Of a stretch of DNA of 64,000 nucleotides, positions 10,381-56,992 are shown in pieces. Source of the stretch: Caldisericia bacterium (lineage in GTDB: Bacteria > Caldisericota > Caldisericia > UBA6126); assembly GCA_035363255.1 (NCBI GenBank), contig DAOSES010000006.1:25544-89543 (forward strand), read 5' to 3'. A program made the position numbers and the translations under genes. Every line of letters begins with the position of its first letter. Within the stretch, counting starts at the first letter, position 1. The notes below the pieces were generated by a model. It saw only the letters and a list, made by a program, of their open reading frames with translations, was not told where the DNA came from and did no database searches.

Positions 10381-10382
10381 AA

Positions 10383-11382: not shown

Positions 11383-11397
11383 TATCATTCTGATCCC

Positions 11398-17222: not shown

Positions 17223-17856
17223 GAGCCACCGCAGTCATATATACCGGAAGTTCAGGAAAAGTTTTGTTGATTGCTTTTTTGCAGGCATGAAGAGTACTGC
17301 CCGATGTAAAGACATCATCGAGCAACAATACCGATGCTGGCTGAAAGGAGGAGAAAAGGGGAGCTTTTGCAGTAAAAGATAAAGAGGGATTTTTCATACG
17401 CTCCTGAGTTCTTAAGCCTTTTTGCTCTCGATCCTGCAGGCTGAAATCCTTATATAGAAGCTTTGAATATAGAGGCAAACCCGAGCAGACATGAAAACTT
17501 TGAGCAAGCAGTTCGACGGGTTGATATTTTCGACGAAACAATCGGTGCACCGAGCTGGGAACAGGCACAATAATGCTTTTCTGCCAGGGGTAATAGGCTT
17601 GAATGGTTTTCCAGAGTTCCTGTGCAAAAAAACGGGAAAGATGAAACGCCTTGCGATATTTGAACTTCAACATCAAATCCCGGGTCAGATCTACATAGTG
17701 AAAAGCAAACATGACCCAATCGCCCATAGGAGTTTGGCGAAGCGGAAGGATACAACGCGCTTTGTCCAGTTGGTCCGAGCAAGTAGGACAAGCTTGATAG
17801 GCTCGAGAGGTTTCGTTGAGGCAAATCGGACAAAGAGGGCTCATTTCAGCGAACAA
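17215..17856 (-). CDS. ComF-family protein: N-terminal double zinc ribbon plus phosphoribosyltransferase domain.
   Basis: CPICLN...CPTC zinc ribbon and PRTase motif LLLDDVFTSGSTL. Confidence 0.8.
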   Translation of the reverse strand: MFAEMSPLCPICLNETSRAYQACPTCSDQLDKARCILPLRQTPMGDWVMFAFHYVDLTRDLMLKFKYRKAFHLSRFFAQELWKTIQAYYPWQKSIIVPVPSSVHRLFRRKYQPVELLAQSFHVCSGLPLYSKLLYKDFSLQDREQKGLRTQERMKNPSLSFTAKAPLFSSFQPASVLLLDDVFTSGSTLHACKKAINKTFPELPVYMTAVAHG

Positions 17857-20768: not shown

Positions 20769-20840
20769 ACCCCAAAAGTATAGCACAGCATAGCGTAAAA
20801 AAGCACAAACAAACTATTGTTATAGATACATTGATTCATA

Positions 20841-32762: not shown

Positions 32763-33551
32763 CTAAGTAAAATCTATTTTGTTATCAATTTGCAGTAACA
32801 TTGGTAGGCATAAGAGAGTTGTCCAACCAATTAACAGAGCCACTGAGTTAAAAAAAATCAAGATATTTGTTTGATCAATAAATGCTTTTTTTATGGTGAA
32901 ATAGGGCATAAACATGATCACATCAATAAAATTGTTGTAGATAAACACAAATACTATTGCCGCAAGGACATAAAAGAGATAGTGCGACAGGAGTTTTTTG
33001 AGTTTGTTTTGTTGACTCAAAGAGATGAAGGTAAAGAAAAAAATGCCCACCGCATTGAGGAAATTTAGGCTGAGTATCATGAGTATGTGAAAATAGAAAG
33101 AAACAGAAACATAGGTCATGATTAAGCTATGAGCTGAAGGGTAGTCTTGACTAACTGGAGAAATATAGATTTTTAACAAAATCAGAGAAACAAGATATTG
33201 AAAAGTGCTATAAAAAAAGAGCTCGAGATTAAAACCAATCAGTTTAACTAATAAAACTTGTTTGCTTCTCACTGGCAAAGGACGGAAAAAAGAAAAATTT
33301 TTCAAACGGTAAATATCGTAGCTGGCAAAAAGAGCTAAAAATGTCAGAGGAAGGATATAAAGTAAACCGATCTTTGTAGTAAGAAAGCTGATATACAATT
33401 CAGTACGAAAGAAAATATCAAAGTGTTTGCAAACGGGAAGGAGGTTGAAGTAAACAAACTGAATGTTGTAAATCATCAAGAAAGGAAAAACTATGACAGA
33501 GCGCCTCAAGCGCAGTTTGAAGTCATGTTTTAGTAGTTTTGATGTGTTCAA
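32763..33551 (-). CDS. ABC-2-type membrane permease (paralogue 2 of a tandem pair).
   Basis: 262 aa with 6 TM helices; about 30 % identical to the adjacent 262-aa gene. Confidence 0.6.
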   Translation of the reverse strand: MNTSKLLKHDFKLRLRRSVIVFPFLMIYNIQFVYFNLLPVCKHFDIFFRTELYISFLTTKIGLLYILPLTFLALFASYDIYRLKNFSFFRPLPVRSKQVLLVKLIGFNLELFFYSTFQYLVSLILLKIYISPVSQDYPSAHSLIMTYVSVSFYFHILMILSLNFLNAVGIFFFTFISLSQQNKLKKLLSHYLFYVLAAIVFVFIYNNFIDVIMFMPYFTIKKAFIDQTNILIFFNSVALLIGWTTLLCLPMLLQIDNKIDFT

Positions 33552-33563
33552 TTTGTGTCCCTA

Positions 33564-34352
33564 TCAGATAAAGTCAAGTCTCTTATCGACCAACACCATG
33601 AACGGAATACTAAAAAACAAAGACCCTCCAATCAAAAATAATGCGATATAAATAGCATTGATGGGGCTTACACTCTCAATGTAGTTTTTGTAAAAAGTAC
33701 TTGAAATGAAGGAAACCATGTTGTTGAAGATATGGTTAAAAAAAAGAAGACACAGAATGGCTATACTCGTGTGAATTAGGTAAAAACCGATTTTTGATGA
33801 AGACTTGATATGATTGTTGAAAGAGAAGTAGGAATAAAAAAACAATACGATGGCATTGATCATGTTGATCGCTAAAAGGGTCAGACAATGAAACAACAAG
33901 GAAGAGGATACAAATGTTTTAAATAGGGCATGACTTTCAGGATAAGATATACTTTGAGGCAGGATGAAAGCATAAAAAAACACTAAACTTATCAGGTATT
34001 GAAGAGTGCCAAAGAAAAAAAACTCCGCATTAGCTCCTATCAGCTTTGCCCAAAGGATTCGAGTACTGGAATGGGGAATTTGTCGAAAAAACGCATAGCT
34101 TGGCAGATGATAAATGTCAACAAAAGCAAAAAAAGCTAAAATTGCTAAAGGAAGAAAGTAAACAAAACTTAGCTCGTTGATTAAGAGAGACACCCCTTCG
34201 TTTCGAGCAAAAGTGCTTGTAAGAAGCTGAGAGGCAGGAATGTAGTGAAAAAGCAATACTAGTAAGTTGTAAACAAGAACACCCGAAAGCCCTATATTTA
34301 ATCTATGAATACGCTTTCTATATTCGTATTTGATCAAGCTTAGAATGAACAT
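33564..34352 (-). CDS. ABC-2-type membrane permease (paralogue 1).
   Basis: 262 aa with 6 TM helices; placed immediately after the ABC ATPase gene. Confidence 0.6.
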   Translation of the reverse strand: MFILSLIKYEYRKRIHRLNIGLSGVLVYNLLVLLFHYIPASQLLTSTFARNEGVSLLINELSFVYFLPLAILAFFAFVDIYHLPSYAFFRQIPHSSTRILWAKLIGANAEFFFFGTLQYLISLVFFYAFILPQSISYPESHALFKTFVSSSLLFHCLTLLAINMINAIVLFFYSYFSFNNHIKSSSKIGFYLIHTSIAILCLLFFNHIFNNMVSFISSTFYKNYIESVSPINAIYIALFLIGGSLFFSIPFMVLVDKRLDFI

Positions 34353-35040
34353 ATTTTTCCCAGTATAGGTTTACAATGGACATATTTCGCTCTATGCGTA
34401 AATCTTCAGCGTTGGCTGTGAGTTCAATATGGCCTTGCCTGATAAAAATCACATCACTTAAAATATGTTCAATTTCCTCGACATGATGTGTTGAAATCAT
34501 CATGGCGCAATTATCGTGAAATGCATTGAGGATCTCAGTTAAAAACATATTGCGTGTGACGATGTCCATAGCTTCCAAGGGCTCATCCAGAAGATATATC
34601 GAAGCTCCTACTCGACATAAAACTAAGATTAGTTTTAATGATGAGATGTTTCCGCTGGAAAGTTTGGAAACCATGATTTTGGGGCTAAGATCAAATTGCC
34701 TTAATAGTTTGTTGCAATAAGCCAAATCAAAATCGGGAAAAAAATCCTTGTAAAAATCTACTGCATCAATCACCCTCATCCAGCGAGGAAAGGGATTCCC
34801 CTGTATGAAGCCAGCTATCTGCTTCATTGAAGAGTGATTTAATGGAGCTCTTTGATACAAAATTTGACCCATGCTGGGCTGTGTGTAACGCAACAGAAGC
34901 TTGAAGAGAGATGTCTTCCCGCTACCGTTGGGCCCCAACAAACCAAGCAAGGACCCTGGAAAAATAGTTAAATTTATATCTGTTAAAGCGTATTGAGTGG
35001 AGTACTTTTTATATACTTTTTTTAGCTCAATCGCGCCCAT
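34318..35040 (-). CDS. ABC transporter ATP-binding protein.
   Basis: Walker A GPNGSGKTS, signature LSSGN, Walker B IYLLDEP, H-loop. Confidence 0.85.
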   Translation of the reverse strand: MGAIELKKVYKKYSTQYALTDINLTIFPGSLLGLLGPNGSGKTSLFKLLLRYTQPSMGQILYQRAPLNHSSMKQIAGFIQGNPFPRWMRVIDAVDFYKDFFPDFDLAYCNKLLRQFDLSPKIMVSKLSSGNISSLKLILVLCRVGASIYLLDEPLEAMDIVTRNMFLTEILNAFHDNCAMMISTHHVEEIEHILSDVIFIRQGHIELTANAEDLRIERNMSIVNLYWEKYVHSKLDQIRI

Positions 35041-35407
35041 GCAGATCATCCCACTGATCTGAATATGGCTTAATAATGGTGATGAGTTCTGATTTTGAAA
35101 TACCAAGGCTTCTGAGTTCCTGGAAAAATTCGCTCAGTTTTTCTTTGTAGGCATCTTCTTTGAGGCGGTTGATAAGGTTTTTGTCGTCAGTAACATAATA
35201 ACCTACTCCACGAGCTGGAATTAAAAGCCTGTCACGTACAAGTTCAAACATAACGCGCTGAATAGTGCTGTTGGTAACGTTGTATTCGGCGGCAAGGGCT
35301 CTTACGGAAGGAGTCATGGATCCTGCTCGGTATTCTTTGCGTAAAATTTTGTACTTAATTTGATCTAAGATCTGCAAATAGATTGGCACCTTTGTGTTAA
35401 AATGCAT
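35027..35407 (-). CDS. GntR-family transcriptional regulator, short YtrA-like subtype.
   Basis: 126 aa. GntR wHTH pattern: PIYLQILDQIKYKILRKEYRAGSMTPSVRALAAEYNVTNSTIQRV. Confidence 0.8.
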   Translation of the reverse strand: MHFNTKVPIYLQILDQIKYKILRKEYRAGSMTPSVRALAAEYNVTNSTIQRVMFELVRDRLLIPARGVGYYVTDDKNLINRLKEDAYKEKLSEFFQELRSLGISKSELITIIKPYSDQWDDLHGRD

Positions 35408-41100: not shown

Positions 41101-41549
41101 AGAAAGGCATTGGCCCCGAACCAATTGATCTGCCTGAGTTTCCTCTATCAGGGTATATCCCTGACTCCTTTATGAAGGATGAAGGAGAACGACTCGCAAT
41201 TTATCAAGAGTTGGTTACCATAAAAAAACGAGATCAACTTAACCGCTTAGTAAAAGATCTTCAAGATCAATATGGGGTTTTTCCCAGCGAAATGGAAGAG
41301 TTTGTTCATAATCTTGATTTAAGAATTCAAGCATACGAAAAAGGGCTGAGTTCAGTACAAATTGAAGACATCTTCATTCATTTCAACTTTGATTATCAGC
41401 ACCATCGTTTTAAAATGGAAGCAAAAAGTCTTTCGCAACTGGTTGCACAATTTGGTAACCATATCCGATTCAAACCAGAAGCAATCATGATCCGAAAAAG
41501 TAAAACCGATTTGATGCAAGTGATTGAGGGGGTTCTGAAATGTCTTTAA
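38133..41549 (+). CDS. mfd: Transcription-repair coupling factor Mfd.
   Basis: 1138 aa. Superfamily-2 helicase motifs (GDVGYGKTEVA, IIDEEHKFGV), TRCF/CarD-like domain. ATG overlaps the pth stop. Confidence 0.92.
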   Translation: MNWPSFTRLFQAYPPFSLDPAIFEKDRYHFSIYNAVGAAASLAVAEIIYKNPGKLLITAKSETQLEHILEDLYALLEPEQSSRLVLFPDTAVLPYEKISPSIEQIGEQIQVLNLLQEDHVIVLAPYYALFNPVLDPIDLQSHAIHLKLEQTLRVEELLTTLIPWGYHHELSVERVGDLKVKGGIVDIFSPSAKYPVRIEWVGKTISSMRFFDPITQLSVEKISHYKILPVTHVIANEEQFKKTAQAIRQWMGQKRLPISGPIVEDLEKLEQGILFSGIEHYLPFLRTRECTLIDYFDDSSPIVWLQKEEFSHSMECLTQEISEIRSVEKEKKEILPFPFEAFIEENKQKLILKPRQWELEALPLAVSTSSHYALPVRYMDTIVQKDLKTTVDQHLSRQGHLMIASKQKKRVLEILSSLGVDLLNPDLIIHDAHLSRGFSAPELKTALLTDLELFGWKRPHKTHKRFKEGIPIKSVDDLKLGDILSHYSYGIGIYRGLTVVKDAEGKQKEFLLMEYAKGDKLYIPPERIHMVNKYIGDPENTPLNSLGSADWERARSKAKKGAEELAQELLELYAKREVSKGIRFASDTPWQEEMEALFPYEETIDQMQAIHDVKQDMEAPQIMDRIVTGDVGYGKTEVAIRAAFKAIMDGFQVAMVVPTTILANQHYENFKERYAPYPIKVACLSRLVSSKKQKEILAGLEKASVEMVIGTHRMFSKDIAFKNLGLLIIDEEHKFGVKHKEQIRKIKENVDVLTLSATPIPRTLSMSMSGIKEISRIDTPPEGRKPVKTYVMPYDEELLQQAIRFELARNGQVYYVHNRIQDILRIRDNLLKILPEIKIGVAHGQMKGDTIDGVITDFLTGKLNVLLCTTIIESGIDIATVNTLIVDDSEFLGLAQMYQLRGRVGRSHRRAYAYFFYDPKRATQFKAEARLDAIREYVELGSGLKIAFRDMEIRGAGNFLGPEQHGHIRSVGYHMYIQLLKEAIEDLRFKKGIGPEPIDLPEFPLSGYIPDSFMKDEGERLAIYQELVTIKKRDQLNRLVKDLQDQYGVFPSEMEEFVHNLDLRIQAYEKGLSSVQIEDIFIHFNFDYQHHRFKMEAKSLSQLVAQFGNHIRFKPEAIMIRKSKTDLMQVIEGVLKCL

Positions 41550-42745
41550 CCATGAACTGGATCATGGATGAGGTCCTGGCAATTGGTCCTTATCCTACGC
41601 AGAGTGATATTGAGTATCTCCATCAGCAGGGATTTAGAATGCTTATACGTTTTACAGAAGAAACGAAAAGTACCTATCATCTTCCTGAAGAATGGTTTAA
41701 AGGATTGCATTTGCCAATAGCGGATTATGGCTTGCCAACAGTTGAGCAGGTGTCTCAGCTTGTAAGACATGTCCACTTTTATCAGCAACAGGGTGTAAAA
41801 GTCTATATGCATTGTAGAGCTGGTTATGGGAGGGCAGGCACTACAGCCGCTCTTGTTTTGGTTTCTTACGGGGAAGCTCCACAGCGTGCAATCCGGATAG
41901 TTAGATCAAGACGGCCAGGTACCATCGAAACCGAGGCGCAACAGGCCATGATTCTTAGTTCGGATGAATGGATGAAAGCTATTATGAATGCTGATGACTT
42001 GCAATGGTTCAAGTCATGCAAAATGATTGAAGTTTTGCGAGAAAAATGTCCCTGGGACCAGGAGCAAACCCATGAAACACTGGTGGAGTCCTTAATGGAT
42101 GAGGCTTATGAAGTAGTGGAAGCAATTAGAAGCAAAGATATGCAACAACTCAAAGAGGAGTTGGGGGATTTGATGATACAGCCCTTGATACAAGCCCAGA
42201 TTGCAAAAGAAGAGGGTAATTTTACCATCAACGATGCGATGGATGTGATGTTAGAGAAGCTTAAACGAAGACATCCACATGTCTTTGGATCCATTGTTCA
42301 GCAAACTCCCAAGGGAGTGGTGCATCAGTGGTCAGACATCAAAAAAACGGAAAATGGAGAAAAAAAGACCTATCCCTCGCCTTTAAAAGAGATCATGGAT
42401 ATATCGTTGGAAGCGTCTGCTGATGGATTTGAATGGGAAAAAGCAGAAGAGGTATTAGACAAAATTGGTGAAGAATTGGACGAAACAAGACATGCCTTAA
42501 GCGACGGTGATCAACGATCAGTAGAAAATGAGCTGGGAGACTTGCTTTTTGCAGTTTTTAATGCCATCCGTTACTTAAAAATCGATCCCATCAAAGTCAT
42601 GGAAAGAGGGAGAAGGAAGTTTGAGATTCGTTATCGTACTGCTCAAAAAATGATGCAGGAAGATGGCTTAGACTCGCGTAAACTTTCCTCCCTTGAGCTT
42701 AATAATTATTGGGAAAAAGCTAAAAAGTTTAATTCTCCTGTTTAA
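41540..42745 (+). CDS. Fusion protein: N-terminal dual-specificity/Tyr protein phosphatase domain plus C-terminal MazG nucleoside triphosphate pyrophosphohydrolase.
   Basis: CX5R P-loop VYMHCRAGYGRAGT in the first 150 aa or so. Two MazG EExx(E/D) helices (EELGDLMIQ; ELGDLLFAV) in the C-terminal 250 aa. Confidence 0.75.
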   Translation: MSLTMNWIMDEVLAIGPYPTQSDIEYLHQQGFRMLIRFTEETKSTYHLPEEWFKGLHLPIADYGLPTVEQVSQLVRHVHFYQQQGVKVYMHCRAGYGRAGTTAALVLVSYGEAPQRAIRIVRSRRPGTIETEAQQAMILSSDEWMKAIMNADDLQWFKSCKMIEVLREKCPWDQEQTHETLVESLMDEAYEVVEAIRSKDMQQLKEELGDLMIQPLIQAQIAKEEGNFTINDAMDVMLEKLKRRHPHVFGSIVQQTPKGVVHQWSDIKKTENGEKKTYPSPLKEIMDISLEASADGFEWEKAEEVLDKIGEELDETRHALSDGDQRSVENELGDLLFAVFNAIRYLKIDPIKVMERGRRKFEIRYRTAQKMMQEDGLDSRKLSSLELNNYWEKAKKFNSPV

Positions 42746-43343: not shown

Positions 43344-43492
43344 TCAAATATACCTCTCCTATGCTTCGTATTTTAAAAGGTATTATACCTTAGCCGAAAA
43401 AAAAGCATAGCTTATTCAGCTCAACAAACTTTTTCAAGAGCAAGTTTCCTGTTATAATTAACGTTTAGCTTGAATAGCAGAAGGAGCATTCA

Positions 43493-45106
43493 ATGAAAAA
43501 ATGGGTGATATATCTGTTACCGTTGCTTTTAGTGATCTGTTCAATAGGCGCGCTGTTTTTTACAAAACACCGGATTGAGCAATTTGTGGCAATGTCGCGA
43601 CAGATGCCAATACCTATGGATGTAGAGGATTTGGTTAAAGAGGAATCATTTAATCGGCCCTTACCTATCGATCCAATATACCCAAAAGTAGCTCTCTTGC
43701 TATTGAATGGGATGCCAGAAGAAGTATATGAACTAGTCAAACAAGCCCAAGCAGAGCAAAATGATACTCAGATGAAGTTTTCAAGCACCTTTCTTGCCTG
43801 GGAAACTATGCATGATCTTGACTTTAACTATCAAACCCTTCAAGCTGGGTTAAATCCTCTCCGTGCAGATGCTTTTTTGAAAATTGCATCCAGAGAGTCA
43901 GACGCTTTGCTCAAGATAGTTCAGGATTATGGATTCAAAGCCTACACTACCGACGTTCTTCAAGAGCTATCCTATCCTGAAAAGGATTGGAACGATGCTT
44001 CTTTGATTGTATTAAATGCCAGCAACGACTCCTGGTCTTCAGCTTCTTTTAATGCTCAAGAGATGGCCGACCAAATCGTCGAATTGATCCAGAAAACCGA
44101 TCCAGGAACCTTGTTAGTTATAAGCTCTCTGATTCCAAACCCTCGATTACCTATCTCTTTTAAGCCTCGATATCATTACACAGTTCCCCTAGCCTTTATT
44201 GGCTCCAAAGTTGATCCATCCATTGAACTTCCACTGATGAATGTTCAAGAACTTACTGCCACTATATCCTATGCCCTTGGTTTGCCCTCACCTACTGGTT
44301 GTATGGCAGTGCCATGCTTTACCCTTTTTCCTCAAGAGGATAAGGAGCTATTAAATCGTATGCTTTTCTCAGGACACAACTATCTTAGCAATGCCTTATA
44401 TGGTCTGAGCGACTTTGGTCTCGATGAAGCCATTTCAACCGGTTACTTTTTTCAATATTCTGACAAATTGGAATATGCCAAAAGCACTGACTACAAGCAA
44501 ATGTTGTCTGCAATCCAGCAAATGGATCAAGATTACCGTGAGTTTCTTGACAACGAAAACCAAAAAGCCAATATGATTCCAACGATTGTATCAGTTATTT
44601 TGTTGGCACTGCTCTTGATTGCCTGGTTGTTACTATTGCCCTATTTTTATCGCGGGATCTTGTTTGGTTTGCTTTGGATTGCCTTATGGCTTGTATTTTT
44701 CCATGGAGTATTTCGTTTGCCTATTCAATTGCCCTCCTTACACCAATTTTCCTGGGTTTGGATCCTTTCAGCTCATCTTTGGCCTTTGATTTTATCCACT
44801 CTGGTGCTGGGAACGGGCATGACGCTTATTGCTGGTTTTTGGCTCGACTTACAGCTCAAGGATCTTTTTGTAGATTTTCAGTCTGCGGCTGGTACTTTCC
44901 TTGTTTTTCTCCTTGCGCAGGGTGCCTTTTTTTCAATTCGTGATGGTTTTGTAATTGGCCGAATCATTCCAGCTTTTTTTACTCAAGCCTTAATGTTTCG
45001 AAATCTTGCTCATATCATCTTGCTTCCCTTATTCTTTGGTTTAATGCTTTTATTAGCATCCTCCATCTATGGGATATCTTTAAAAATAGCCCAAAAAAGA
45101 GGGTGA
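43493..45106 (+). CDS. Hypothetical membrane protein: N-terminal TM, extracytoplasmic domain of about 330 aa, C-terminal bundle of about 6 TM helices.
   Basis: Strong RBS AAGGAG. Hydrophobicity pattern; no known catalytic motif recognised. Confidence 0.55.
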   Translation: MKKWVIYLLPLLLVICSIGALFFTKHRIEQFVAMSRQMPIPMDVEDLVKEESFNRPLPIDPIYPKVALLLLNGMPEEVYELVKQAQAEQNDTQMKFSSTFLAWETMHDLDFNYQTLQAGLNPLRADAFLKIASRESDALLKIVQDYGFKAYTTDVLQELSYPEKDWNDASLIVLNASNDSWSSASFNAQEMADQIVELIQKTDPGTLLVISSLIPNPRLPISFKPRYHYTVPLAFIGSKVDPSIELPLMNVQELTATISYALGLPSPTGCMAVPCFTLFPQEDKELLNRMLFSGHNYLSNALYGLSDFGLDEAISTGYFFQYSDKLEYAKSTDYKQMLSAIQQMDQDYREFLDNENQKANMIPTIVSVILLALLLIAWLLLLPYFYRGILFGLLWIALWLVFFHGVFRLPIQLPSLHQFSWVWILSAHLWPLILSTLVLGTGMTLIAGFWLDLQLKDLFVDFQSAAGTFLVFLLAQGAFFSIRDGFVIGRIIPAFFTQALMFRNLAHIILLPLFFGLMLLLASSIYGISLKIAQKRG

Positions 45107-45119
45107 ATCGGAGGTCAAA

Positions 45120-48100
45120 ATGCTTAAACGCCTTATCATTGCTGTTCTGATCAGTCTGATGATGATGGCATGGGCTTTTCCCTTTGAGATCCATACTAGC
45201 AATGCTCGAGATTTGCGAATGGACTTCAGGACTGATCCTGAACGTTTTGTGCTTGAAGATTCTTATCTTCATCTTTATGTTACCTGCAACGATGCATCCT
45301 GGCTCACCATCGAACTACTCATGGGTCAACAAACGATATTATGGCAAGAGCATATCGAAGTATCAGCTCAAGTGGAAAAATACCTTCAAATTCCAGTAGT
45401 TTATCCTTTGCTTGAAGATTTTGAAGTTCGTATCCTTGCACAAGCTCAAAACAGCACTTCCAAAGCTCAAAATCAGCGAAAATTTGTTATTCAAAGAAAA
45501 CAGCAAGGTTCTTTAAGCCTCCAGGGAAGAATCACACAGTGTTCTCCATTTCAACCTTTGGGTTTGGAAGGTGCATTGATTGAAATTATCAGTGGCCCGT
45601 CTGCTGGAAAAGAACTGACTGAAGATGAGGGCTATTTTGTTTTTAAACAGCTTCCTCCTGGTACCTACAAGGTGCGAGTAAGTCATCCCTGCTCATCTGA
45701 TGCTCTCGAAAAGATAATATTTCTTGATGAAAAAACTTCTTTCCAGGAATGGTGCCTTCAAACCTACCGGATACCCGACATGGATTTATGGCTCAACAAG
45801 CCTTCAGGGAGTGTTTTTGAAGTGGGCGAAACCATGACGGTTTTTTTACGTTCCTCTGTTTCAATGAAAGCTGATGTAATGATTACAGATTCTCGTGAGA
45901 CCAAACCACTATTTCGGGGCTTACACCTTCAACAAGACCAGATACAACGGTTTTTTTGGCGACCTACACCAGCACAACGCTTGGGCAAGGTCGAGTTGGC
46001 CTTGGTTCCTGCTGAAGAACAGCTCTGCGGTGAGGCTCGTTACCAATTTCAACTCATATCCAACATGCAAACTGGAGTCATCGGAGGTAGAGTACGATTG
46101 GGTGGCAAGGCGATGCAAGGAGTTAAAGTATATTTACCCTTGCAATCTACAGCCCCAGCTTTTACTGACGAACGAGGCTTTTTTGAAATACCCGATGTTC
46201 CTGCTGGAATCCACGTTGTTCGTGTAATGACCAGCGAAGACATGTATGCAGACAAGCATGGGGTTGAAGTTAGCAAAGGCAAAATCACTGAAGGAGTGGA
46301 AATTGATCTTCCTAATGAAAACATTAATTTTGTATTGGATCCACCTCAAATCTTTGCCACCACCCATGAACGCAGGGAAAAACAAGTCCCATTATTAATA
46401 TCACTCGACGAAGGAAGCATTAACAATCTTCAAGTTAAAATAGTGGAAGGACCCTCTGAGTTATCTGTTTTCCCCTCTTCTCTGCCTTCCTTATTGCGCG
46501 AGAAACGACGTGTTTGGCTCGTAATACCTGAAAACTGCCCTGTAGGAGATCATTCTGTCACAGTGCGTATTGGCAACAACCTTCACTCGGTTGAATGGAA
46601 GGGACTTATCCAGGTCACTGGTCTGTCTCGAGGCACTTTTGATGCTTCGATTGCACCACTCAAGAAGACAGTCATACAGGGTGAAGAAGCTATTTTTGAG
46701 GTGAAAGTTGAGAAATTCACCAATTTTAATGCCAAAGTATCAATCAAAGCTGAAACGCTTCCTCCTTATTCCGAATTTCAAGCAGAGGAAGCCAAAACAG
46801 CCCCCGCAAGTATTCAGTTTAAAGTACGAACCAGTTTAAACACTCCCCCAGCACAATATAGTGTATGGATCAAAGCTGAAGGAGATCAGCTCAGTTCCTG
46901 GTATTCCTGCCAACTTGAAGTGTTAAAAACTGGAGGCACTCTTGCAAGTGTACCTGATAGCACCTGGAATCCCATCGTTTCCGCAGGGCAACACGTGCAA
47001 TCCACTATCTCCTTATGGAGCCCCAAAGGAGAAACACGCCAGGTTCGCATCCAATTGGCATATGGACCCACCTGGCTCAGATTTGAAAATCGCAACATAG
47101 GAACTGTGGGTGAGAGTCCTATCGAGGTTCCGTTGATAGTTCAACCCGATAATCAAGTGGTTTCTGGAGCATATAACTATTCAATAAATCTGATCTATGG
47201 AGAGCGAAGTGAGGGTTTCTTCAAACTGGAAGGTCAGATCTATGTCCAACAAAATGAACTCGATACCCCCACCAACCTAAGAGCAAGATATATCAGAGAA
47301 AAAGGTAGCATTACTCTTACCTGGGGTCCCCCTGCAGAAGCGGCAGATCAGGTCGTAGGATACAACTTGTATCGATCATTACGATATCCCACCCTTGAGC
47401 ATGCTGTGCCTCTCAACTACAGCTTGATCACAGATCGTACCTACGTAGATGATGACTTTTTAGTAGGAAAATCTTACTGGTATGTAGTTCGAGCAGTAAG
47501 AAGCGATGGTAGTTTGAGTCCTCGATCCAACACAGCCGAAATTCGGATCAATCCTTCTTTTGTTTTTTCAATGAAATCTTCTTTCAGCAAAGGGGAAAAA
47601 GCTGTCTGTTTTGTGGGCGAACAAATAGGACTCACCTTAAAACCTTCTCATTCAGCTTCAGTGGAAGTTTGGATCAAGCAGAATGAAAGTTCCGTTTTAG
47701 TGTTGAGCCAGTCCTTAATTGGCAAAGCTCTGCAAGATTTATACTTTATTACTCCAGACCTGGAGGGAGAAGCGCTCATAGAAGTGAAAGCAGTAAAAGA
47801 GGATGGACAGCAGTCAATTTCCCAGCATTCCATTAACATCAAAAAAAATAGGAAGGGAAACATACAAGTCAAAGGAAAGCTCTTTAATTCCCTCTATCAA
47901 AGACCCATATCTCATGCGCGTATTTGGGTGTGGGATGGATTTAGCAGAGCTGAAAGTTACACGGATGCAGAGGGTCATTTTGTCTTAAAGGATCTGGAAG
48001 AAGGAATGTATCGATGGATGGTGGAGTATGCAGGCACCAAAGCTCTCACTGAAGCTCGATATGTCAGCGCAAATCAAAATGAACCATTGGAACTTGATCT

Positions 48101-50669
48101 TCCCTTATCATGGACTCCCCCCTTTTATGCCTGGCAGAAACCTGGCACTGAAAAGGATTCTTACCATCCAGGAGCTTCAATAGAGCTTGCAGTTTTTCCT
48201 TCGATGGATACTCAGCTTAGCATTTCAATTGAAACACAGGGTAAAGCGCGAAGATTGCTGATCGACAAAAATTTCACTGCATCAGTGATGCAAGCAGAAA
48301 CAATCCTCATCCCAGAAGATCTCCCCCCTGGAACTGCCTATTGCTTGATTGAATCAAGCCAACCTCAGGGTTTGGTAAGGATCCCTTTGCTCGTTCAAGA
48401 ACAAAGACATGAATGGCAGGGACAAGTGGTGGATCCTTTTGGAAATTTGCTGATGGGGGTTGACATTAAAGATGGGGAAGGAAAAGAGAGCATAGCAAAA
48501 ACCAATGAATGGGGTTATTTTGCTTTAGACCAAGCAGATTCAGCAATCAGCTTTCATCAACAAGCCTATGCTCCAGTATTTCTAAAAAAATCAGAAAATA
48601 CCTCTATGCAAGTGGTCCAATTAAGTTATGAGCTGGAGGATTCGGATATTACAATGCAAGATATTACCGTCTCAGATGATTTTACAGAGTTTGAATGGAT
48701 GATTCCATTGCGATCGGGATGGATTCCAGCAGTGGAGTTTTCCATATATTCAGGCATCAAAGAAGAAGTTGGGGAGGGTGAGGAAGCTCCAGAAGAAAAG
48801 CCATGGAAAAGCTGGCCAAAAAGAGACTTGTTTCCTGGCCATTGTTATCGTTTGCATATTGATGGAGTCCCTCTATCTTCAGACACGCGCCTGGAATGGA
48901 AACACTCTGATCAACGACATTCGGTTCCGATTGTTAAAGGCTTGCCCTATCGATGGCATGTAGAAAGTTTACCGCCTATACCCATAGTGGATGCTGGCAA
49001 AGAGCTTGTGCTTGAGTTGGACTTATATACTCATGGATATTACAAGAAGATTGTATATCTTGAAGTGGCAAGTGAAAATCCTGAAATCAAGGCTTGGCTG
49101 CTTCCTGAGCGTTTTGTATCAGGACAATTGCTAAGACTTATGCTTGACATACCTAGCCATGTTCCTGAAGGTACTTATCTGTTTTACCTCAGCATGAAAC
49201 TTGACGATCACAAAGATATCCGACCCTTACGAGTATCGATTCGTCAACCGCGAGCAGTTGAAACCAAGAACTTGAGCTGGCAGCCCACCTTATATGAAAA
49301 TCAAGCTATTGAGCAAAGGTTTTTCTTTAAAGATGGAATAGAAGAGCCTCAAAAATTCCCTGCACTTCCTGATGGAGTCAAGGTTCAATATTTGCCCTCT
49401 GAGCTACTTGTTCAGCTACAAAGCCCGAAACCTATTCCTAGCTTTTCATTGCCAGTGCACCATGCTGGAAATAAGCTTGCAGAAATTCAAGTTAATCCGC
49501 TGGTGCTTCCAAAAAAACAAATCACTGTGCCTGAGCTAACCTCCACTAGCGAAAGAGAAGGCGTGATGCTTCATTTGAATCCGCTTAGTGCAGGAACTTA
49601 TTATCAAATCTTTCGATCTCAAGCCCAAGAGAGCAAGATACCTCAACATTTTGATTGGCGCAGCACAGCAAATTATCTTGATACGAGTGTCAAAGAGCGA
49701 GAAACTTATCATTATCGTGCTTTAGTCACCGACGGACAACTTGAAGCGGTTTGGACTGAAACAACCACTCTCATTTACCGGCAGTTGTTTATTGTCATCC
49801 ATATTAATGATGGGCTTATCAGCAATCGAAAACAAATTGACTTGAAGGGGTCTGTGTCCATTGGTGCACGTTTATTCATCAACGACGAGTCCATCACCCT
49901 CGGTAGAAATGGAGTATTTGAAAAAACTTATTCCCTCAAGGAAGGACCCAATCGCTTTATTTTCAGAGCTGAGGATGATGCTGGGAATGTACTTGAAGAG
50001 CATCGTACGATATATCTTGATACTGAGCCTCCTCAGATTGAGTTGATTTCTCCCGATCAAAACATTACCCACACCCTTCAAAACAACCTGCAAATGAAAG
50101 TAAGATGTGAAGCAAAGGCTTATTTGGCTGTTAACGGAAACAAGCTTGATCTTGATGAGTCAGGGGTAGCCACATTTTCAACAAGCTTAGCTTTTGGTAG
50201 AAATGATTTTCAGTGGTTTGCTACCGACAGGGCGGGAAACCAAACCAAGCTAAACACCTGGGTATATAGATATAAGGCACAAACCCTGCTCAAGCTTCAA
50301 ATTGCCAATCGAACAGCATATATTGGCGAAAAAGCTATAATTCTTGATGCTCCTCCCCAGATTGTGAGTGGTAGAACCCTGGTTCCTTTAAGATTTATAG
50401 CTGAAGCTATGGGGAGCAAAGTGGAGTGGATTGCTTCGAGCAAGGAGATAATTCTTCGTTTGGGCGATAAAACCATCAAACTTCAAGTCGGGCTGAAAGA
50501 AGCCTTGATAAATAATCAAGATAAAGTTATCCTTGATGTTCCTCCAATGATAATGGAAGGACGAACTATGGTTCCCTTGCGTTTTGTTGCGGAGGTCTTG
50601 AATAGTAAGGTTGACTGGTTGCCTCAAACCAAAGAAATACATGTATTGGTGTGGGTTTGGGAAGCATAA
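45120..50669 (+). CDS. Giant secreted surface protein (1849 aa). It has carboxypeptidase-regulatory-like/Cna-B-like beta-sandwich domains, FN3, a C-terminal [AEDDAGN...LDTEPP] module, and two Cu-amine-oxidase-N-like anchoring domains.
   Basis: Signal peptide LIIAVLISLMMMAWA. Motifs GYFVFKQLPPGTYKVRV and GFFEIPDVPAGIHVVRV. C-terminal GRTLVPLRFIAEAMG and GRTMVPLRFVAEVLN. Confidence 0.75.
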   Translation: MLKRLIIAVLISLMMMAWAFPFEIHTSNARDLRMDFRTDPERFVLEDSYLHLYVTCNDASWLTIELLMGQQTILWQEHIEVSAQVEKYLQIPVVYPLLEDFEVRILAQAQNSTSKAQNQRKFVIQRKQQGSLSLQGRITQCSPFQPLGLEGALIEIISGPSAGKELTEDEGYFVFKQLPPGTYKVRVSHPCSSDALEKIIFLDEKTSFQEWCLQTYRIPDMDLWLNKPSGSVFEVGETMTVFLRSSVSMKADVMITDSRETKPLFRGLHLQQDQIQRFFWRPTPAQRLGKVELALVPAEEQLCGEARYQFQLISNMQTGVIGGRVRLGGKAMQGVKVYLPLQSTAPAFTDERGFFEIPDVPAGIHVVRVMTSEDMYADKHGVEVSKGKITEGVEIDLPNENINFVLDPPQIFATTHERREKQVPLLISLDEGSINNLQVKIVEGPSELSVFPSSLPSLLREKRRVWLVIPENCPVGDHSVTVRIGNNLHSVEWKGLIQVTGLSRGTFDASIAPLKKTVIQGEEAIFEVKVEKFTNFNAKVSIKAETLPPYSEFQAEEAKTAPASIQFKVRTSLNTPPAQYSVWIKAEGDQLSSWYSCQLEVLKTGGTLASVPDSTWNPIVSAGQHVQSTISLWSPKGETRQVRIQLAYGPTWLRFENRNIGTVGESPIEVPLIVQPDNQVVSGAYNYSINLIYGERSEGFFKLEGQIYVQQNELDTPTNLRARYIREKGSITLTWGPPAEAADQVVGYNLYRSLRYPTLEHAVPLNYSLITDRTYVDDDFLVGKSYWYVVRAVRSDGSLSPRSNTAEIRINPSFVFSMKSSFSKGEKAVCFVGEQIGLTLKPSHSASVEVWIKQNESSVLVLSQSLIGKALQDLYFITPDLEGEALIEVKAVKEDGQQSISQHSINIKKNRKGNIQVKGKLFNSLYQRPISHARIWVWDGFSRAESYTDAEGHFVLKDLEEGMYRWMVEYAGTKALTEARYVSANQNEPLELDLPLSWTPPFYAWQKPGTEKDSYHPGASIELAVFPSMDTQLSISIETQGKARRLLIDKNFTASVMQAETILIPEDLPPGTAYCLIESSQPQGLVRIPLLVQEQRHEWQGQVVDPFGNLLMGVDIKDGEGKESIAKTNEWGYFALDQADSAISFHQQAYAPVFLKKSENTSMQVVQLSYELEDSDITMQDITVSDDFTEFEWMIPLRSGWIPAVEFSIYSGIKEEVGEGEEAPEEKPWKSWPKRDLFPGHCYRLHIDGVPLSSDTRLEWKHSDQRHSVPIVKGLPYRWHVESLPPIPIVDAGKELVLELDLYTHGYYKKIVYLEVASENPEIKAWLLPERFVSGQLLRLMLDIPSHVPEGTYLFYLSMKLDDHKDIRPLRVSIRQPRAVETKNLSWQPTLYENQAIEQRFFFKDGIEEPQKFPALPDGVKVQYLPSELLVQLQSPKPIPSFSLPVHHAGNKLAEIQVNPLVLPKKQITVPELTSTSEREGVMLHLNPLSAGTYYQIFRSQAQESKIPQHFDWRSTANYLDTSVKERETYHYRALVTDGQLEAVWTETTTLIYRQLFIVIHINDGLISNRKQIDLKGSVSIGARLFINDESITLGRNGVFEKTYSLKEGPNRFIFRAEDDAGNVLEEHRTIYLDTEPPQIELISPDQNITHTLQNNLQMKVRCEAKAYLAVNGNKLDLDESGVATFSTSLAFGRNDFQWFATDRAGNQTKLNTWVYRYKAQTLLKLQIANRTAYIGEKAIILDAPPQIVSGRTLVPLRFIAEAMGSKVEWIASSKEIILRLGDKTIKLQVGLKEALINNQDKVILDVPPMIMEGRTMVPLRFVAEVLNSKVDWLPQTKEIHVLVWVWEA

Positions 50670-50694
50670 GTAAGGACACAAATTGGAGGATGCG

Positions 50695-51126
50695 ATGAAA
50701 GCTAAAAAAATTAATCCTGACCGTTGGGTAATTCGACTTGAAAAAGGCGAAGAAATCGTGCAGACCTTGAAGGCTTTTTGTCAGAAGAATCACTTGACCG
50801 GAGGATCAATATCGGGTATTGGAGCTAGCAATTCAATTACTATCGGACTATTTGAATGTGAAAATAAACAATATCAATCCCTCGAATTGGTAGGCGATTT
50901 TGAAATAACAAGTCTTTTAGGAAATCTATCCACCTTCAAAGGAGAGGTTTATCTTCACCTACATGCCACGATTGCAGACAAAAATCAAAGGGTCTTTGGA
51001 GGCCATTTAAACCAAGCCATCATCAGCGCTACAGCAGAAATTGTTCTGCAAGAAATGCCAGGGTTTGGAGATCGCTATTTTGACGATGAAATAGGTTTAA
51101 ACCTGTTAGATTTACCTGATGCATAA
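50695..51126 (+). CDS. PPC/DUF296-domain protein.
   Basis: GGSISGIGASNSITIG...LHLHATIAD pattern of the PPC domain. ATG 50695 with RBS GGAGG; the ORF-track start 50683 is a TTG codon. Confidence 0.55.
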   Translation: MKAKKINPDRWVIRLEKGEEIVQTLKAFCQKNHLTGGSISGIGASNSITIGLFECENKQYQSLELVGDFEITSLLGNLSTFKGEVYLHLHATIADKNQRVFGGHLNQAIISATAEIVLQEMPGFGDRYFDDEIGLNLLDLPDA

Positions 51127-54162: not shown

Positions 54163-55773
54163 ATGGATAGGATTTCGGATATTTTTGCAGAAGATATAGC
54201 ACTTTTCCTGCAAGTATTTCCCTTGGAGCTCAGAAAGAGTATTCAAGAAGCAGGAGATTTGAACGACCTTATTGAAGTGATTCTGGACGTTGGAAGACTT
54301 CCAGAAGCACGGTTTTATCATGCTGTAAAAGCCTTATCCAGCAAAAAACTTGAAAAAGCAGATCTAAACCTCATCTTGGAGCAATTTGATCATTTTGACC
54401 ATGACAATCGTGCGGGAATTGATCGCACCCTTCATCGTATATCAGCCATACGTAACCGGCATGAAGAAATTGTGGGTCTCACCTGTCGAGTTGGCAGGGC
54501 TATTTTTGGTACAGTTGACATTGTCAAGGATATGGTAGAATCTGGTAAAAACATTCTACTCCTTGGCAAACCTGGGATAGGCAAAACCACACTATTGCGC
54601 GAAAGTGCTCGAGTATTAAGCAAAGAATTATCCAAGCGAGTGGTTATTGTTGATACCTCCAATGAAATTGCAGGGGATGGCGATACTCCTCATCCCGCTG
54701 TGGGACTTTCCCGTAGAATGCAGGTTCCTCCTCGCCGCGAGCAATATCAAGTCATGATCGAAGCCGTAGAAAATCACACTCCCGAAGTCATTATCATCGA
54801 CGAAATCAGCACTTCCGAAGAAACTTCCGCTTGCCGTACTATCGCTGAGCGTGGAGTCCAACTTATCGCTACTGCCCATGGCAACACACTCGAGAATGTT
54901 CTTTTCAATCCCACCATTAGTGATTTAGTGGGAGGGATCACCAGTGTGATTTTAAGTGATGAAGAAGCTGCAAGACGTGGAACCCAAAAAACAGTACTTG
55001 AGCGAACTTCCCAGCCCACTTTCAATGTGTTGATCGAAATTCATGGACGCGAAGAGTTTGCAATATATAAAGATGTACAGAGCACGGTGGATCGCTACTT
55101 AAGAGGTTTTCCAGTTGCTCCTGAAGTAAGAAAACGCAGTAATGACGGAGCAAGCTATGTGGTCGATAATCCAAGCACTGAACGCATTGATCTACAACAA
55201 GAAAACTCCCTGTCTGACCAACACTTTCTCCAACGAAAAGGATCCAAAATATCCGAAGATCCCTTACTCAGCATTTCCCAACGAAAGCAGGTTCGAATTT
55301 TCCCTTTTGGGATTAGTGCCCACTATTTAAATCGAGCCCTAAAAGGGGCTCGTTTTGATGGAGTAATGGTAAAGCGCTTGCAAGATGCCAGTTTGATTTT
55401 AACAACCGAAACCTTTCGAAAAAAGAATTCAGATGCTTTGCGCATGGGCGAAAACATGAACATCCCCATCTATTCTATCTATTCCAATACCCTCAGCGAA
55501 GTGAAAAAATTTGTTTCGCAATACCGGAGCCATGAAAAGCAAGCAGTATTCAGCCTGGAACGTATTGAAAAACTCATTGAGCAAGTATTCATTACCGAAA
55601 CCCCAGTTAGTTTGCCTGCAGCAGACTCCAAAATTCGAAAGCTTGAACATCAACTAGCAGCCCGATTTGGCTTGAATTCAGAAAGTTATGGAGAGGAGCC
55701 TTCACGTTTTGTGGTGGTGTATCCTCCTGGTAAAGATGAAAAGGAGTGGTCAAATGAAGACGAAATTAATTAA
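54163..55773 (+). CDS. SpoIIIAA-like / Ycf45-like AAA+ ATPase with a long C-terminal extension.
   Basis: N-terminal EVILDVGRLPEARF, Walker A GKPGIGKTT, Walker B VIIIDEIS, then a C-terminal region of about 250 aa. Confidence 0.65.
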   Translation: MDRISDIFAEDIALFLQVFPLELRKSIQEAGDLNDLIEVILDVGRLPEARFYHAVKALSSKKLEKADLNLILEQFDHFDHDNRAGIDRTLHRISAIRNRHEEIVGLTCRVGRAIFGTVDIVKDMVESGKNILLLGKPGIGKTTLLRESARVLSKELSKRVVIVDTSNEIAGDGDTPHPAVGLSRRMQVPPRREQYQVMIEAVENHTPEVIIIDEISTSEETSACRTIAERGVQLIATAHGNTLENVLFNPTISDLVGGITSVILSDEEAARRGTQKTVLERTSQPTFNVLIEIHGREEFAIYKDVQSTVDRYLRGFPVAPEVRKRSNDGASYVVDNPSTERIDLQQENSLSDQHFLQRKGSKISEDPLLSISQRKQVRIFPFGISAHYLNRALKGARFDGVMVKRLQDASLILTTETFRKKNSDALRMGENMNIPIYSIYSNTLSEVKKFVSQYRSHEKQAVFSLERIEKLIEQVFITETPVSLPAADSKIRKLEHQLAARFGLNSESYGEEPSRFVVVYPPGKDEKEWSNEDEIN

Positions 55774-56992
55774 GTGGACTCATTGGCTCGTGGTCATGTT
55801 CATGGTATTATCACTTATTAGCGTCAATCAAGGATGTCGACGAGGCATCAAAGATTCAGAAACAGCTCTAATTGGAGTGATTACCGATGTTCAAAACCAG
55901 GTGCCAGTTGGAAAAGTACAGATTGAAATACGCAATACAAGCAATGGAAAAACCTTTAAAGGCACAAGTGATCAACAGGGAAGATTCAAAATCTTTTCCG
56001 AAGCTGGCTATTACGAGCTTAAAGCAGAACATCCCAAGTTTCATGCTTATCAACGCAGTATTGTCCTTGGAAAAGGCACTAATCAAGAAGATTTCTATAT
56101 GTCACCCATGCTCGAAAAACCAGGCAGCTTCGAAGGTGAGATTATAGCTGAAGATACCAAAAAACCTCTTGAAAACGTTACCGTTCAGATTGGCACAAAC
56201 CTTGCCAAGACCGATGCCAAGGGTCGTTTTAAATTTGATTCCCTACCTTTGGGGTCTTATCCAGTGTGGGCAACTATTCCAGGATATCAGGCTGTAAATG
56301 AAACTGTCACTATCGTCCGTGGTGTCAATAAAGTCAAATACACCTTAAAGCGTTTAAACTTGTCAGACGTTACCAAACCCGCTGAGCCTTTACCCCGCAA
56401 TCCTGTCTATGTGATCGATCCCACGTTCTTGGGTGATTTCCGAGCTCATTCTGTCAGGATTATCAAACCATTGAATGAACGACATGAGTACAAGCTAATC
56501 TCTGAAAGCAGACATCGTAGATACTTAAATTATGATGAACAAGTAGATAAGGGAGAAGTGCTTTATGTGGATGATGCCATCTATGTGAAATTTTTAGACA
56601 AATGGCAAGAACCAAAACAAATCAATACTTCCAGTAGGCCTGATGCTTTTATTGCCGACGATATCCTCATGGTATCCCACTACTTCAACTTTACCGACAA
56701 GGATTTCGATATAAAAGAGCTTGGATCAGAAAAAATGAATGGCTACAACACCAAAAAGTATCAGTTATCTTCAAAAGCTACTGCTACCCCAGAAAAACAT
56801 ATCAATGTTCAACTTTGGATGATATTTGACGAATCCAACCCAAGAATACATCGAATGATTACTCGCATCAAAGGGCGAGTACCCGAACTGCTCAATATGG
56901 ACACTTGGGCAGAGATTGATACCAATATCACCCATATCAATCAAAGCAACAAAATTGAGATTCCAGCCATCCATAAAGCAGCCAGCTCATAA
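55754..56992 (+). CDS. Secreted protein or lipoprotein with two carboxypeptidase-regulatory-like (CarbopepD_reg) domains.
   Basis: Signal peptide [28 protein letters not shown]. Two GxVxD...P..A.V......TD..GRF motifs. Start at ATG 55754 with RBS AAGGAG. Confidence 0.65.

Follow-up and report, generated by a model that had tools for sequence, protein, structure and literature searches.

Introduction

LtaS, EptA (MCR-1), BcsG and PbgA (YejM) are built from five N-terminal transmembrane (TM) helices followed by a C-terminal domain with the fold of the alkaline phosphatase (AP) superfamily, and their nucleophile is a Thr or a Ser. The eukaryotic GPI ethanolamine-phosphate transferases (PIG-N/Mcd4, PIG-O/Gpi13 and PIG-G/Gpi7) still possess the motifs for metal binding and for the nucleophile, and their TM helices are far more numerous. 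A different kind of arrangement is found in archaeal S-layers, for which a very large secreted envelope protein, SlaA, is encoded beside a smaller membrane-anchored partner, SlaB, in the same operon. SlaB is a single-pass stalk protein, and its gene follows that of SlaA.

The surface proteins of Firmicutes include several that carry the Cu_amine_oxidN1 domain (PF07833), e.g., OlpC of C. thermocellum, ScaG of A. cellulolyticus and Swol_0133 of S. wolfei, the last of which is abundant, resembles S-layer proteins and carries PF07833 at the C-terminal end (PMC3582634). The domain is regarded as a module associated with the wall or surface, with wall binding stated at the level of annotation (PMC4137172; bioRxiv 10.64898/2026.09.23.753664; PMC3413522), and in PaSOD it acts as a dimerisation domain (PMC10432803). 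With regard to the Caldisericota, an outer-membrane-like layer has been seen by electron microscopy in Caldisericum exile, which nevertheless lacks BamA and other recognisable outer-membrane proteins (PMC4104836, citing Mori et al. 2009). A literature search on Caldisericota surface proteins yielded nothing specific.

Here, two adjacent genes from a Caldisericia bacterium are described, which encode a 537-aa membrane protein and a secreted protein of 1849 aa (the giant). They are located in a stretch of 64,000 nucleotides, which is called the window. In contrast to LtaS, EptA, BcsG and PbgA, the membrane protein begins with a signal anchor, which is followed by the AP-like domain, a stalk and five TM helices. 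Its nucleophile position is occupied by an invariant Asp, and the His ligands as well as the Asp-His pair are absent. The resemblance to SlaA and SlaB is an analogy without homology; unlike SlaB, the partner is polytopic, is encoded first and has an AP-like fold, and the formation of a lattice by the giant is hypothetical. The tail of the giant likewise contains two copies of PF07833, but two Ig-like domains of the Glucodextran_B type precede them, so that a cassette of four domains results.

Results

Organization of the gene pair

The preliminary description of this DNA had placed the membrane protein gene immediately upstream of the giant gene, and both open reading frames were confirmed (Table 1). 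The promoter-like site upstream of the pair had the top score in the region with 10/12 matches, but it is only a match to the consensus, and overall the promoter and terminator scans found no more sites than in shuffled sequence. The terminator scan revealed no terminator-like site on the + strand between the giant gene and the PCC/DUF296 gene, which adjoins the giant in 11 of 16 distinct loci and is possibly co-transcribed with it.

Table 1. Features of the two gene pairs, with positions in the window and residues of the respective protein.
Feature	Position	Strand	Residues	Remarks
First partner, 860 aa	24498–27080	+		single N-terminal TM helix, DUF2341 and Laminin_G_3
First giant, 1692 aa	27080–32158	+		body unrelated to the 1849-aa protein; cassette at aa ~1440–1692
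Promoter-like site upstream of the pair	43431–43458	+		TTTTCA, 16 nt, TG-TATAAT (extended -10)
Membrane protein, 537 aa	43493–45106	+		open reading frame present at exactly these positions
AP-superfamily-fold domain of the membrane protein			~55–280	extracytoplasmic, after an N-in signal anchor
Three-helix stalk of the membrane protein			283–359	precedes the five TM helices
Intergenic junction, 13 nt	45107–45119	+		GGAGG ribosome-binding site before the ATG of the giant
Giant, 1849 aa	45120–50669	+		secreted, multiple β-sandwich domains; open reading frame confirmed
C-terminal cassette of the giant	49806–50666	+	~1563–1849	two Ig-like Glucodextran_B-type and two Cu_amine_oxidN1 domains
PCC/DUF296 gene	50683–51126	+		starts 13 nt past the end of the giant

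Conservation of the pair in the Caldisericota

When the membrane protein was searched for exhaustively with a profile, only 10 clusters were found, and at every locus retrieved for them an orthologue of the giant was encoded next door. A metagenome scan that was seeded with the N-terminus of the giant added eight further loci, all with the membrane protein gene directly upstream. Altogether 16 distinct loci with the pair were recovered, and the loci that bear a taxon name all belong to the Caldisericota. The membrane protein family was never seen with any passenger other than the giant. Where the membrane proteins share 21–27% identity, the N-termini of the giants share 35–38%, and such a partner is missing from other proteins with the cassette (see below). 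The membrane partner thus goes with the N-terminal body of the giant and not with its C-terminal cassette.

The pair was found in at least four genomic contexts. A pth-mfd-mazG block lies on the same strand as the pair in the window and in loci L001, L003, L004 and L006, it is inverted in L010, L011, L016 and L020–22, and it is absent from L007, L015, L017 and L018. Since a large part of the surrounding DNA is likewise syntenic in this phylum, some of the adjacency may reflect an inherited order of genes. It might even be argued that the two genes are functionally independent and have stayed together only because the lineage is small and rearranges slowly, so that gene order is kept, and this is in line with the restriction of the taxon-named loci to one phylum and with the synteny of the flanking pth-mfd-mazG and PCC-metK-HD-M50 genes in most loci. 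However, breakpoints occur on both sides of the pair and never inside it, the two genes abut in 16/16 loci with junctions between -23 and +20 nt in 15 of them (several overlap), and independent searches with the two families led to an identical, very narrow distribution. Independence of the two genes is therefore improbable. The start is ambiguous in locus L020, where the first ATG gives a junction of -80 and an internal MKK start would give one of about -20.

The membrane protein has a permuted alkaline phosphatase fold

Hydropathy analysis and an AlphaFold model gave one N-terminal TM helix (residues ~5–24), a ~330-aa ectodomain and, towards the C-terminus, five further TM helices (361–380, 386–406, 421–450, 455–484 and 495–536); the first two elements had been recognized before, while about six C-terminal helices had been assumed. 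With six close homologues the model reached a pLDDT of 49.5, and it became usable once distant members were added. The MKK at the N-terminus and the KxxQKRG at the C-terminus indicate that both ends are inside and the large domain is outside. The ectodomain has the core α/β fold of the AP superfamily, and the protein does not have the N-terminal five-TM, C-terminal AP fold arrangement of the LtaS, EptA and PbgA type.

The family did not reach the gathering thresholds of Phosphodiest, Sulfatase, Metalloenzyme, PglZ and DUF2207, and at E values of up to 10 no Pfam model of the AP superfamily was matched in the 12 members scanned, except for one SGSH_C match with an E value of 0.028. An NCBIfam scan of the 537-aa protein gave no matches, a profile of 12 family members revealed no new members in a word-indexed database, and the lone match in a PDB sequence search was a weak one to PafA (E 0.09). 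The GPI ethanolamine-phosphate transferases showed no sequence similarity, and none of them was represented by a solved structure among the matches. The family is an uncatalogued one with a permuted, membrane-anchored alkaline phosphatase fold. A kinship with DUF2207 was rejected, because the DUF2207_C score of 16.1 bits was below the cut-off of 33 and the fold is AP-like. GT-C glycosyltransferase and sortase/exosortase-like roles of the TM domain were also rejected, because the fold and the number of TM helices do not match and invariant catalytic residues are missing.

Catalytic positions of the membrane protein

The catalytic positions were compared in 16 sequences of the family. Competent members of the AP superfamily have a Ser, Thr or formylglycine nucleophile at the N-terminal end of the helix that follows strand β2 and bind metal via an Asp at the end of β1, an Asp...His, an Asp-His pair and a C-terminal His; this nucleophile and these ligands were not found. 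The β1 Asp position (residue 72) is occupied by N, D, E or T, the strand that should carry "DHG" reads ISSL, GALN, TSPL or CYFP, and none of the 16 ectodomains contains a conserved His. In the weak alignment with PafA, His is aligned with Lys or Ser. The nucleophile position is taken by an invariant Asp108 in the motif P-I-x-D-x(9)-L-S-G, which we take to correspond to the NPP motif P-T-x-T-x-P-x-H-x(4)-T-G; the mapping is based on the motif, the secondary structure and an equal spacing of 36 residues from the β1 position, and not on a structural alignment. Asp137 is also invariant. Judged from these residues, the ectodomain is degenerate and probably non-catalytic.

Asp108 and Asp137 could nevertheless form an unconventional rather than a dead active site, as they are invariant in 16 sequences that are otherwise only about 21–27% identical. 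In that case the protein would be an active enzyme with a non-canonical site, in which Asp108 acts as nucleophile or metal ligand together with Asp137 and polar residues at positions 72 and 175. Its role would be either to modify the giant or to link the giant, or else a polymer of the wall, to a lipid or another polymer through phospho-transfer, like LtaS, EptA/EptC/PptA, BcsG and the eukaryotic GPI ethanolamine-phosphate transferases. The fold is that of a superfamily of phospho- and sulfo-transferring enzymes, the tight operon includes a candidate secreted substrate, and the order of a TM helix, an AP-like domain and multiple TM helices is that of GPI ethanolamine-phosphate transferases of the PIG-N/O type. 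Yet the His ligands of the bimetallic site and the Asp-His pair are all missing, the β1 Asp is not conserved, the TM region contains no invariant charged or catalytic residue in the 16 sequences, and no Pfam or NCBIfam enzyme family was matched at even a weak score. In addition, no member of the AP superfamily is known to use Asp as a nucleophile. An active enzyme is therefore regarded as unlikely.

A further possibility is that the membrane protein is a sensor of envelope lipids or polymers similar to PbgA/YejM, which would regulate envelope synthesis and would not handle the giant. The protein contains no cytoplasmic domain and hence has no signalling output, and no partner regulator was seen in the loci. 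Compared with PbgA, its domains stand in a permuted order, and the strict linkage to one secreted protein would be left unexplained. A sensor function is thus improbable.

The giant is a collinear orthologue in all genomes that carry it

The N-terminus of the giant resembles a signal peptide. The Pfam analysis revealed CarboxypepD_reg domains at residues ~137–215, 321–396 and 917–994, Glucodextran_B at 1563–1634 and two Cu_amine_oxidN1 copies at ~1725–1841 (154.8 bits, cut-off 24.2), while SLH domains were not matched. The CarboxypepD_reg-like domains had been predicted in the preliminary description. The FN3 domain that it also listed is a weak, subthreshold match (~729–807, E 0.0035), and its "Cna-B" corresponds to a weak SpaA/SdrD_B match that overlaps CarboxypepD_reg. 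No PDB match was found by sequence search with the 1849-aa giant or with the other giant protein of the window (1692 aa), and for the 1849-aa protein the uncharacterised N-terminal body, an array of 1550 aa, has relatives in neither PDB nor NCBIfam.

Wherever it occurs, the giant is a single collinear orthologue whose length hardly varies (1825–1867 aa in the 12 complete copies), and 175 residues are invariant in 14 complete or near-complete copies. In averages over 14 aligned copies, including that of the window, the N-terminal ~800 aa are kept best, with 43–61% identity to the window residue per 100 aa, while residues 800–1500 are most variable (29–40%) and the C-terminal part with the cassette is again conserved (42–55%). 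The reading as a fibrillar adhesin, for which an array of near-identical tandem stalk domains in varying copy number would be expected, was rejected, as neither tandem repeats in the DNA nor internal protein repeats at E values of up to 1e-3 were present and the complete copies are collinear and similar in length. The "passenger" of an autotransporter or two-partner system was also discarded, because a β-barrel or a TpsB-like gene was not found.

The cassette is generic and the two pairs in the window are of different kinds

The cassette was shared with the first giant, which most likely starts at the ATG at 27080 and overlaps the upstream stop codon in TAATG. The two cassettes were identical at 84 of 248 positions (34%, E 4e-29), and the first giant also contains two Cu_amine_oxidN1 copies (95.9 bits). 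The similarity begins at the Ig-like domain with AEDDAGN/AEDEAGN and therefore reaches beyond the Cu_amine_oxidN1 repeats; nothing outside the cassette could be aligned. Both results agree with the preliminary description, in which the C-termini had been called paralogous and the N-terminal regions unrelated.

A query with 290 aa of the cassette gave 1811 matches with many different N-terminal parts. Many of these were Caldisericia "stalk domain-containing" proteins of 300–500 aa, which consist of PF09136 and PF07833 and cover 95–98% of the query. PF07833 alone was found fused to amidase, S41 peptidase, GH18, nuclease, solute-binding, LamG and cohesin domains. The two cassettes of the window are not each other's closest relatives, as identities of 36–41% to other proteins exceed the 34% between them. 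The cassette is thus a generic, modular surface-targeting tail.

It had been proposed that both pairs belong to a general display system, in which different passengers can be exchanged on one shared C-terminal scaffold and each giant has its own upstream membrane protein. The modular cassette common to both giants fits this proposal, as does the translational coupling of both giants to an upstream gene for a protein with at least one TM helix. However, the 860-aa and the 537-aa proteins differ in topology and show no kinship in either sequence or domains, the former being a single-pass LamG/DUF2341 protein and not polytopic. Five other genes with the cassette or PF07833 were seen, and in the three with a readable upstream side (L013, 405 aa; L014, 496 aa; L007, 518 aa) a PHP protein, a SpoIID protein or nothing preceded the gene, so that a polytopic partner was absent. 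The first pair is missing from the equivalent position in L001, whereas the second is universal, and the 537-aa family keeps to a single, collinear giant, so that the term "swappable passenger" does not apply to this giant. The preliminary description had itself named two outcomes that would together refute its proposal: a similarity confined to the Cu_amine_oxidN1 repeats, which was not observed, and upstream membrane partners that do not recur, which was. The modular use of the cassette stands; a general display system is already largely refuted and hardly credible.

Discussion

The reading that we favour, albeit tentatively and with somewhat less than an even chance, is that the 537-aa protein is a dedicated, probably non-catalytic membrane partner of a lineage-specific envelope protein. 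The two genes would form a lineage-specific bicistronic unit, and the giant, a chain of β-sandwich domains of about 1850 aa, would be exported by Sec. The generic cassette may hold it at the surface by binding to the wall or surface and/or by dimerisation. The membrane protein with its six TM helices would interact physically with the giant and would dock, position or assemble its N-terminal ~800 aa at the cytoplasmic membrane. In this arrangement, the giant would be held close to the cell at either end, leaving its fast-evolving middle (residues 800–1500) exposed.

As an outer layer has been seen in the Caldisericota and BamA has not been recognized, the pair is a concrete candidate, open to test, for an envelope component that is specific to this lineage. 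What is new is the partner, which has lost the metal site, carries an invariant Asp in place of the nucleophile and, in all loci recovered, shares an operon with a single envelope protein of about 1850 aa. It would be another pseudoenzyme of the AP superfamily that has been recruited to envelope biogenesis. It is tempting to speculate that the pair is the core of the "outer-membrane-like envelope" of the Caldisericota, i.e., that the giant forms a proteinaceous outer sheath, which its cassette would attach to the wall and a catalytically dead, permuted LtaS/PbgA-like protein would tie to the cytoplasmic membrane. This is quite unlikely, but if true it would be a new way to build and tether an outer cell layer.

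The cassette itself is ordinary, and it adds the use of Cu_amine_oxidN1 by Caldisericia where Firmicutes often use SLH. This includes a cohesin protein of Caldisericia that has the same cassette and adjoins a dockerin protein, in parallel to OlpC and ScaG (PMC3413522). The codon bias of the giant was unremarkable (ENC 51.9) and gave no sign of a very abundant structural protein, codon bias and composition being uninformative as proxies of its expression level, while an acidic pI of 5.6 and a small share of Cys would suit an S-layer protein.

Conservation of the gene pair

Both ORFs of the pair, encoding the 537-aa membrane protein and the 1849-aa giant protein, were found where the preliminary description had placed them (see table). 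A GGAGG site precedes the second start, 13 nt separate the two ORFs, and the number of promoter-like sites in the region did not exceed that in shuffled sequence. The surroundings are chromosomal housekeeping genes, with NMO, pth, mfd and a PTPase-MazG fusion upstream, and a PCC/DUF296 gene, metK, an HD protein and an M50 peptidase downstream. The PCC/DUF296 gene adjoins the giant gene in 11 of 16 distinct loci, and the two may share one transcript. The fusion gene (41540-42745, + strand) overlaps the end of mfd, joins a dual-specificity protein phosphatase domain to a tandem MazG pyrophosphohydrolase, and is kept in most related loci. Another ORF (55688-56992, + strand) codes for a protein of 434 aa in which CarboxypepD_reg occurs twice; because it overlaps the end of an R3H/SpoIIIAA-like gene by about 86 nt, its start probably lies further downstream.

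Positions of the two gene pairs and associated features in the window
Feature	Position	Strand	Remark
860-aa protein, first pair	24498-27080
1692-aa giant, first pair	27080-32158		counted from the ATG overlapping the upstream stop in TAATG
Promoter-like site	43431-43458		extended -10, best of the region, directly 5′ of the 537-aa gene
537-aa membrane protein	43493-45106	+	coordinates as in the preliminary description
1849-aa giant	45120-50669	+	coordinates as in the preliminary description
PCC/DUF296 gene	50683-51126	+	13 nt 3′ of the giant

Only six relatives of the 537-aa protein with at least 43% identity were found in an index of 5.8 billion proteins, and an exhaustive HMM search retrieved only 10 clusters among 1.84 billion cluster representatives. 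Where sources are named, they are MAGs of Caldisericota, Caldiserica or Caldisericia. In every locus retrieved for this family, an orthologue of the giant lies immediately 3′ of the membrane gene. A metagenome scan seeded with the N-terminal 520 aa of the giant yielded eight further loci, and in all eight the membrane gene directly precedes that of the giant. The partner is linked to the N-terminal body of the giant. The junction ranged from -23 to +20 nt in 15 of 16 distinct loci; in locus L020 it was -80 from the first ATG and about -20 from an internal MKK start. That two independent genes are simply kept together by synteny is quite improbable. The pth-mfd-mazG block has the orientation of the pair in some loci and is inverted in others, it is absent in three (L015, L017 and L018), and in locus L007 a histidine kinase is encoded upstream of the pair.

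The giant has a signal-peptide-like N-terminus. Of the Cna-B/CarbopepD_reg-like and FN3 domains proposed for it, the former were recovered by Pfam as three CarboxypepD_reg domains, while FN3 stayed below threshold. Pfam also detected Glucodextran_B-type Ig-like domains, one clear and one weak, and two Cu_amine_oxidN1 (PF07833) domains, the types that form the C-terminal cassette. The orthologues are collinear, with lengths of 1825-1867 aa in 12 complete copies, and neither tandem nor internal repeats were found in the giant. Therefore, it is one ancient orthologous protein, and the suggested scaffold with exchangeable passengers does not describe it. A total of 175 residues do not vary among the 14 copies that are complete or nearly so; conservation is highest at aa 100-800, lowest at 800-1500, and high again in the cassette. 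Cys191, Cys303 and His189 are invariant, and Cys141 and Cys212 occur in 10 of 14 orthologues; this cluster in and around the first CarboxypepD_reg domain (aa 141-303, window 45120-46100) could be a disulfide or metal site. In L007, the most divergent context, the giant orthologue (11631-12479) ends after 282 aa, and because the contig has many split genes this reflects either an assembly rich in frameshifts or decay of the locus.

A generic cassette at the C-terminus

A BLASTP alignment of the two giants of the window gave 34% identity over 248 aa (E 4e-29). It starts in the Ig-like domain at the AEDDAGN/AEDEAGN motif, and thus the similarity extends beyond the PF07833 repeats. Nothing else aligned, so that the C-termini are related and the N-terminal regions unrelated, as had been proposed. 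With the last 290 aa as query 1811 proteins were found, many of them of only 300-500 aa, with PF09136 and PF07833 spanning 95-98% of the cassette; several are named 'stalk domain-containing protein [Caldisericia bacterium]'. The identity of these short proteins to the query, 36-41%, is higher than that between the two giants. Domains found fused to PF07833 alone include amidase_3, S41 peptidase, GH18, nuclease, solute-binding, LamG and cytochrome c, among others. A local HMM detected the complete cassette in all 12 complete giant orthologues, and the first 198 and 224 of 289 positions in the L010 and L021 copies, which are truncated by an early stop or the end of a contig. It also revealed a third PF07833 protein (3-1250, + strand; Sortilin/BNR-like plus Cu_amine_oxidN1), cut by the window edge.

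The cassette is generic, and neither it nor modular surface anchoring as a principle is new. PF07833 has been described as part of cell-wall hydrolases and as a predicted wall-binding module (PMC4137172; bioRxiv 10.64898/2026.09.23.753664); it is the C-terminal domain in an S-layer-like protein (PMC3582634) and, in one solved case, a dimerisation domain (PMC10432803). On L014, a 2.2-Mb Caldisericia contig, the gene for a 496-aa protein with cohesin, Glucodextran_B and Cu_amine_oxidN1 domains precedes that for a dockerin-bearing PQQ-propeller protein of 1731 aa (6001-12702). This is a putative cohesin-dockerin surface system outside Firmicutes, anchored via the same cassette, and OlpC of C. thermocellum and ScaG of A. 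cellulolyticus are arranged likewise (PMC3413522).

A dedicated membrane partner had been envisaged for each cassette protein. The 860-aa protein of the first pair is single-pass, carries DUF2341 and Laminin_G_3 domains and is unrelated to the 537-aa protein, and therefore does not deserve this label. None of three other cassette- or PF07833-bearing genes with a readable upstream side, a count that leaves out the 3-1250 protein and an L014 Beta_helix protein, has a polytopic protein there; the place is taken by a PHP or a SpoIID protein or is empty. With a generic cassette, unrelated partners and one collinear giant, a general display system is hardly credible.

A degenerate fold in the membrane protein

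Hydropathy and a structure model agreed with the proposed N-terminal membrane segment, a signal anchor, and ectodomain of about 330 aa, and yielded five C-terminal TM helices instead of about six. The large domain was placed outside because conserved basic residues lie at both termini. No Pfam or NCBIfam family matched. AlphaFold with 12 sequences gave a pLDDT of 81 and a pTM of 0.78, and Foldseek agreed weakly with an alkaline phosphatase (AP)-like fold; the sole echo in sequence was a C-terminal 'ATLxxxLGLPxP' segment matching PafA (E 0.09). AP catalytic positions were mapped by motif and secondary-structure correspondence onto a 16-sequence alignment, with the use of NPP residue numbers. 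The β1 Asp ligand position is N/D/E/T, the 'DHG' strand reads SSL/ALN/SPL, and no His is conserved. At the nucleophile (Thr/Ser/FGly) position at a helix N-terminus, Asp108 is invariant; a conceivable but rather unlikely reading is an enzyme of an unconventional Asp-based kind, by which the giant or a wall polymer would be modified or attached. The TM region conserves Trp, Gly, Pro and Thr, and no charged residues are conserved there. The order of anchor, AP-like domain, helical stalk and five TM helices is permuted in comparison to LtaS, EptA and PbgA, and resembles that of eukaryotic GPI-EtNP transferases; a PbgA-like sensor is very unlikely.

Tentatively, we favour a dedicated, probably non-catalytic membrane partner of the giant. 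Its role would be docking or assembly of the giant's conserved N-terminal region; the cassette would hold the other end at the wall, and the variable middle would be left exposed. As far as the libraries searched show, neither the partner family with its permuted and degenerate AP-fold architecture nor the obligatory link between this family and an 1850-aa protein specific to Caldisericota has been described; the pair is a real, tidy conserved module in an obscure phylum. An outer-membrane-like layer lacking BamA has been reported for C. exile (PMC4104836), which makes the pair a candidate for one of the components of that layer, a speculation with a low probability.

Surroundings of the first pair

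The first pair is missing at the equivalent position in locus L001, where NMO and the glycosyltransferase gene are direct neighbours. This glycosyltransferase gene (17841-20786 of the window, - strand; GC about 0.49, background about 0.40) is conserved there and encodes a 981-aa protein in which three parts are fused, GT4 glycosyltransferase, WecG/TagA and CsaB-like polysaccharide pyruvyl transferase; this suggests that a pyruvylated secondary wall polymer is made. Such a polymer is the classical SLH ligand, and an SLH protein is encoded in locus L011. Between the first giant and NMO (32763-35407, - strand) a GntR regulator and an ABC ATPase are encoded together with two polytopic membrane proteins of 262 aa in tandem, an arrangement found in locus L004 and absent in L001. 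A stand-alone ORF of about 300 aa in locus L003 (1120-2055) is 71% identical to parts of the N-terminal body of the first giant; it matches 42% of the query via several segments, which hints at repeated domains in that giant.
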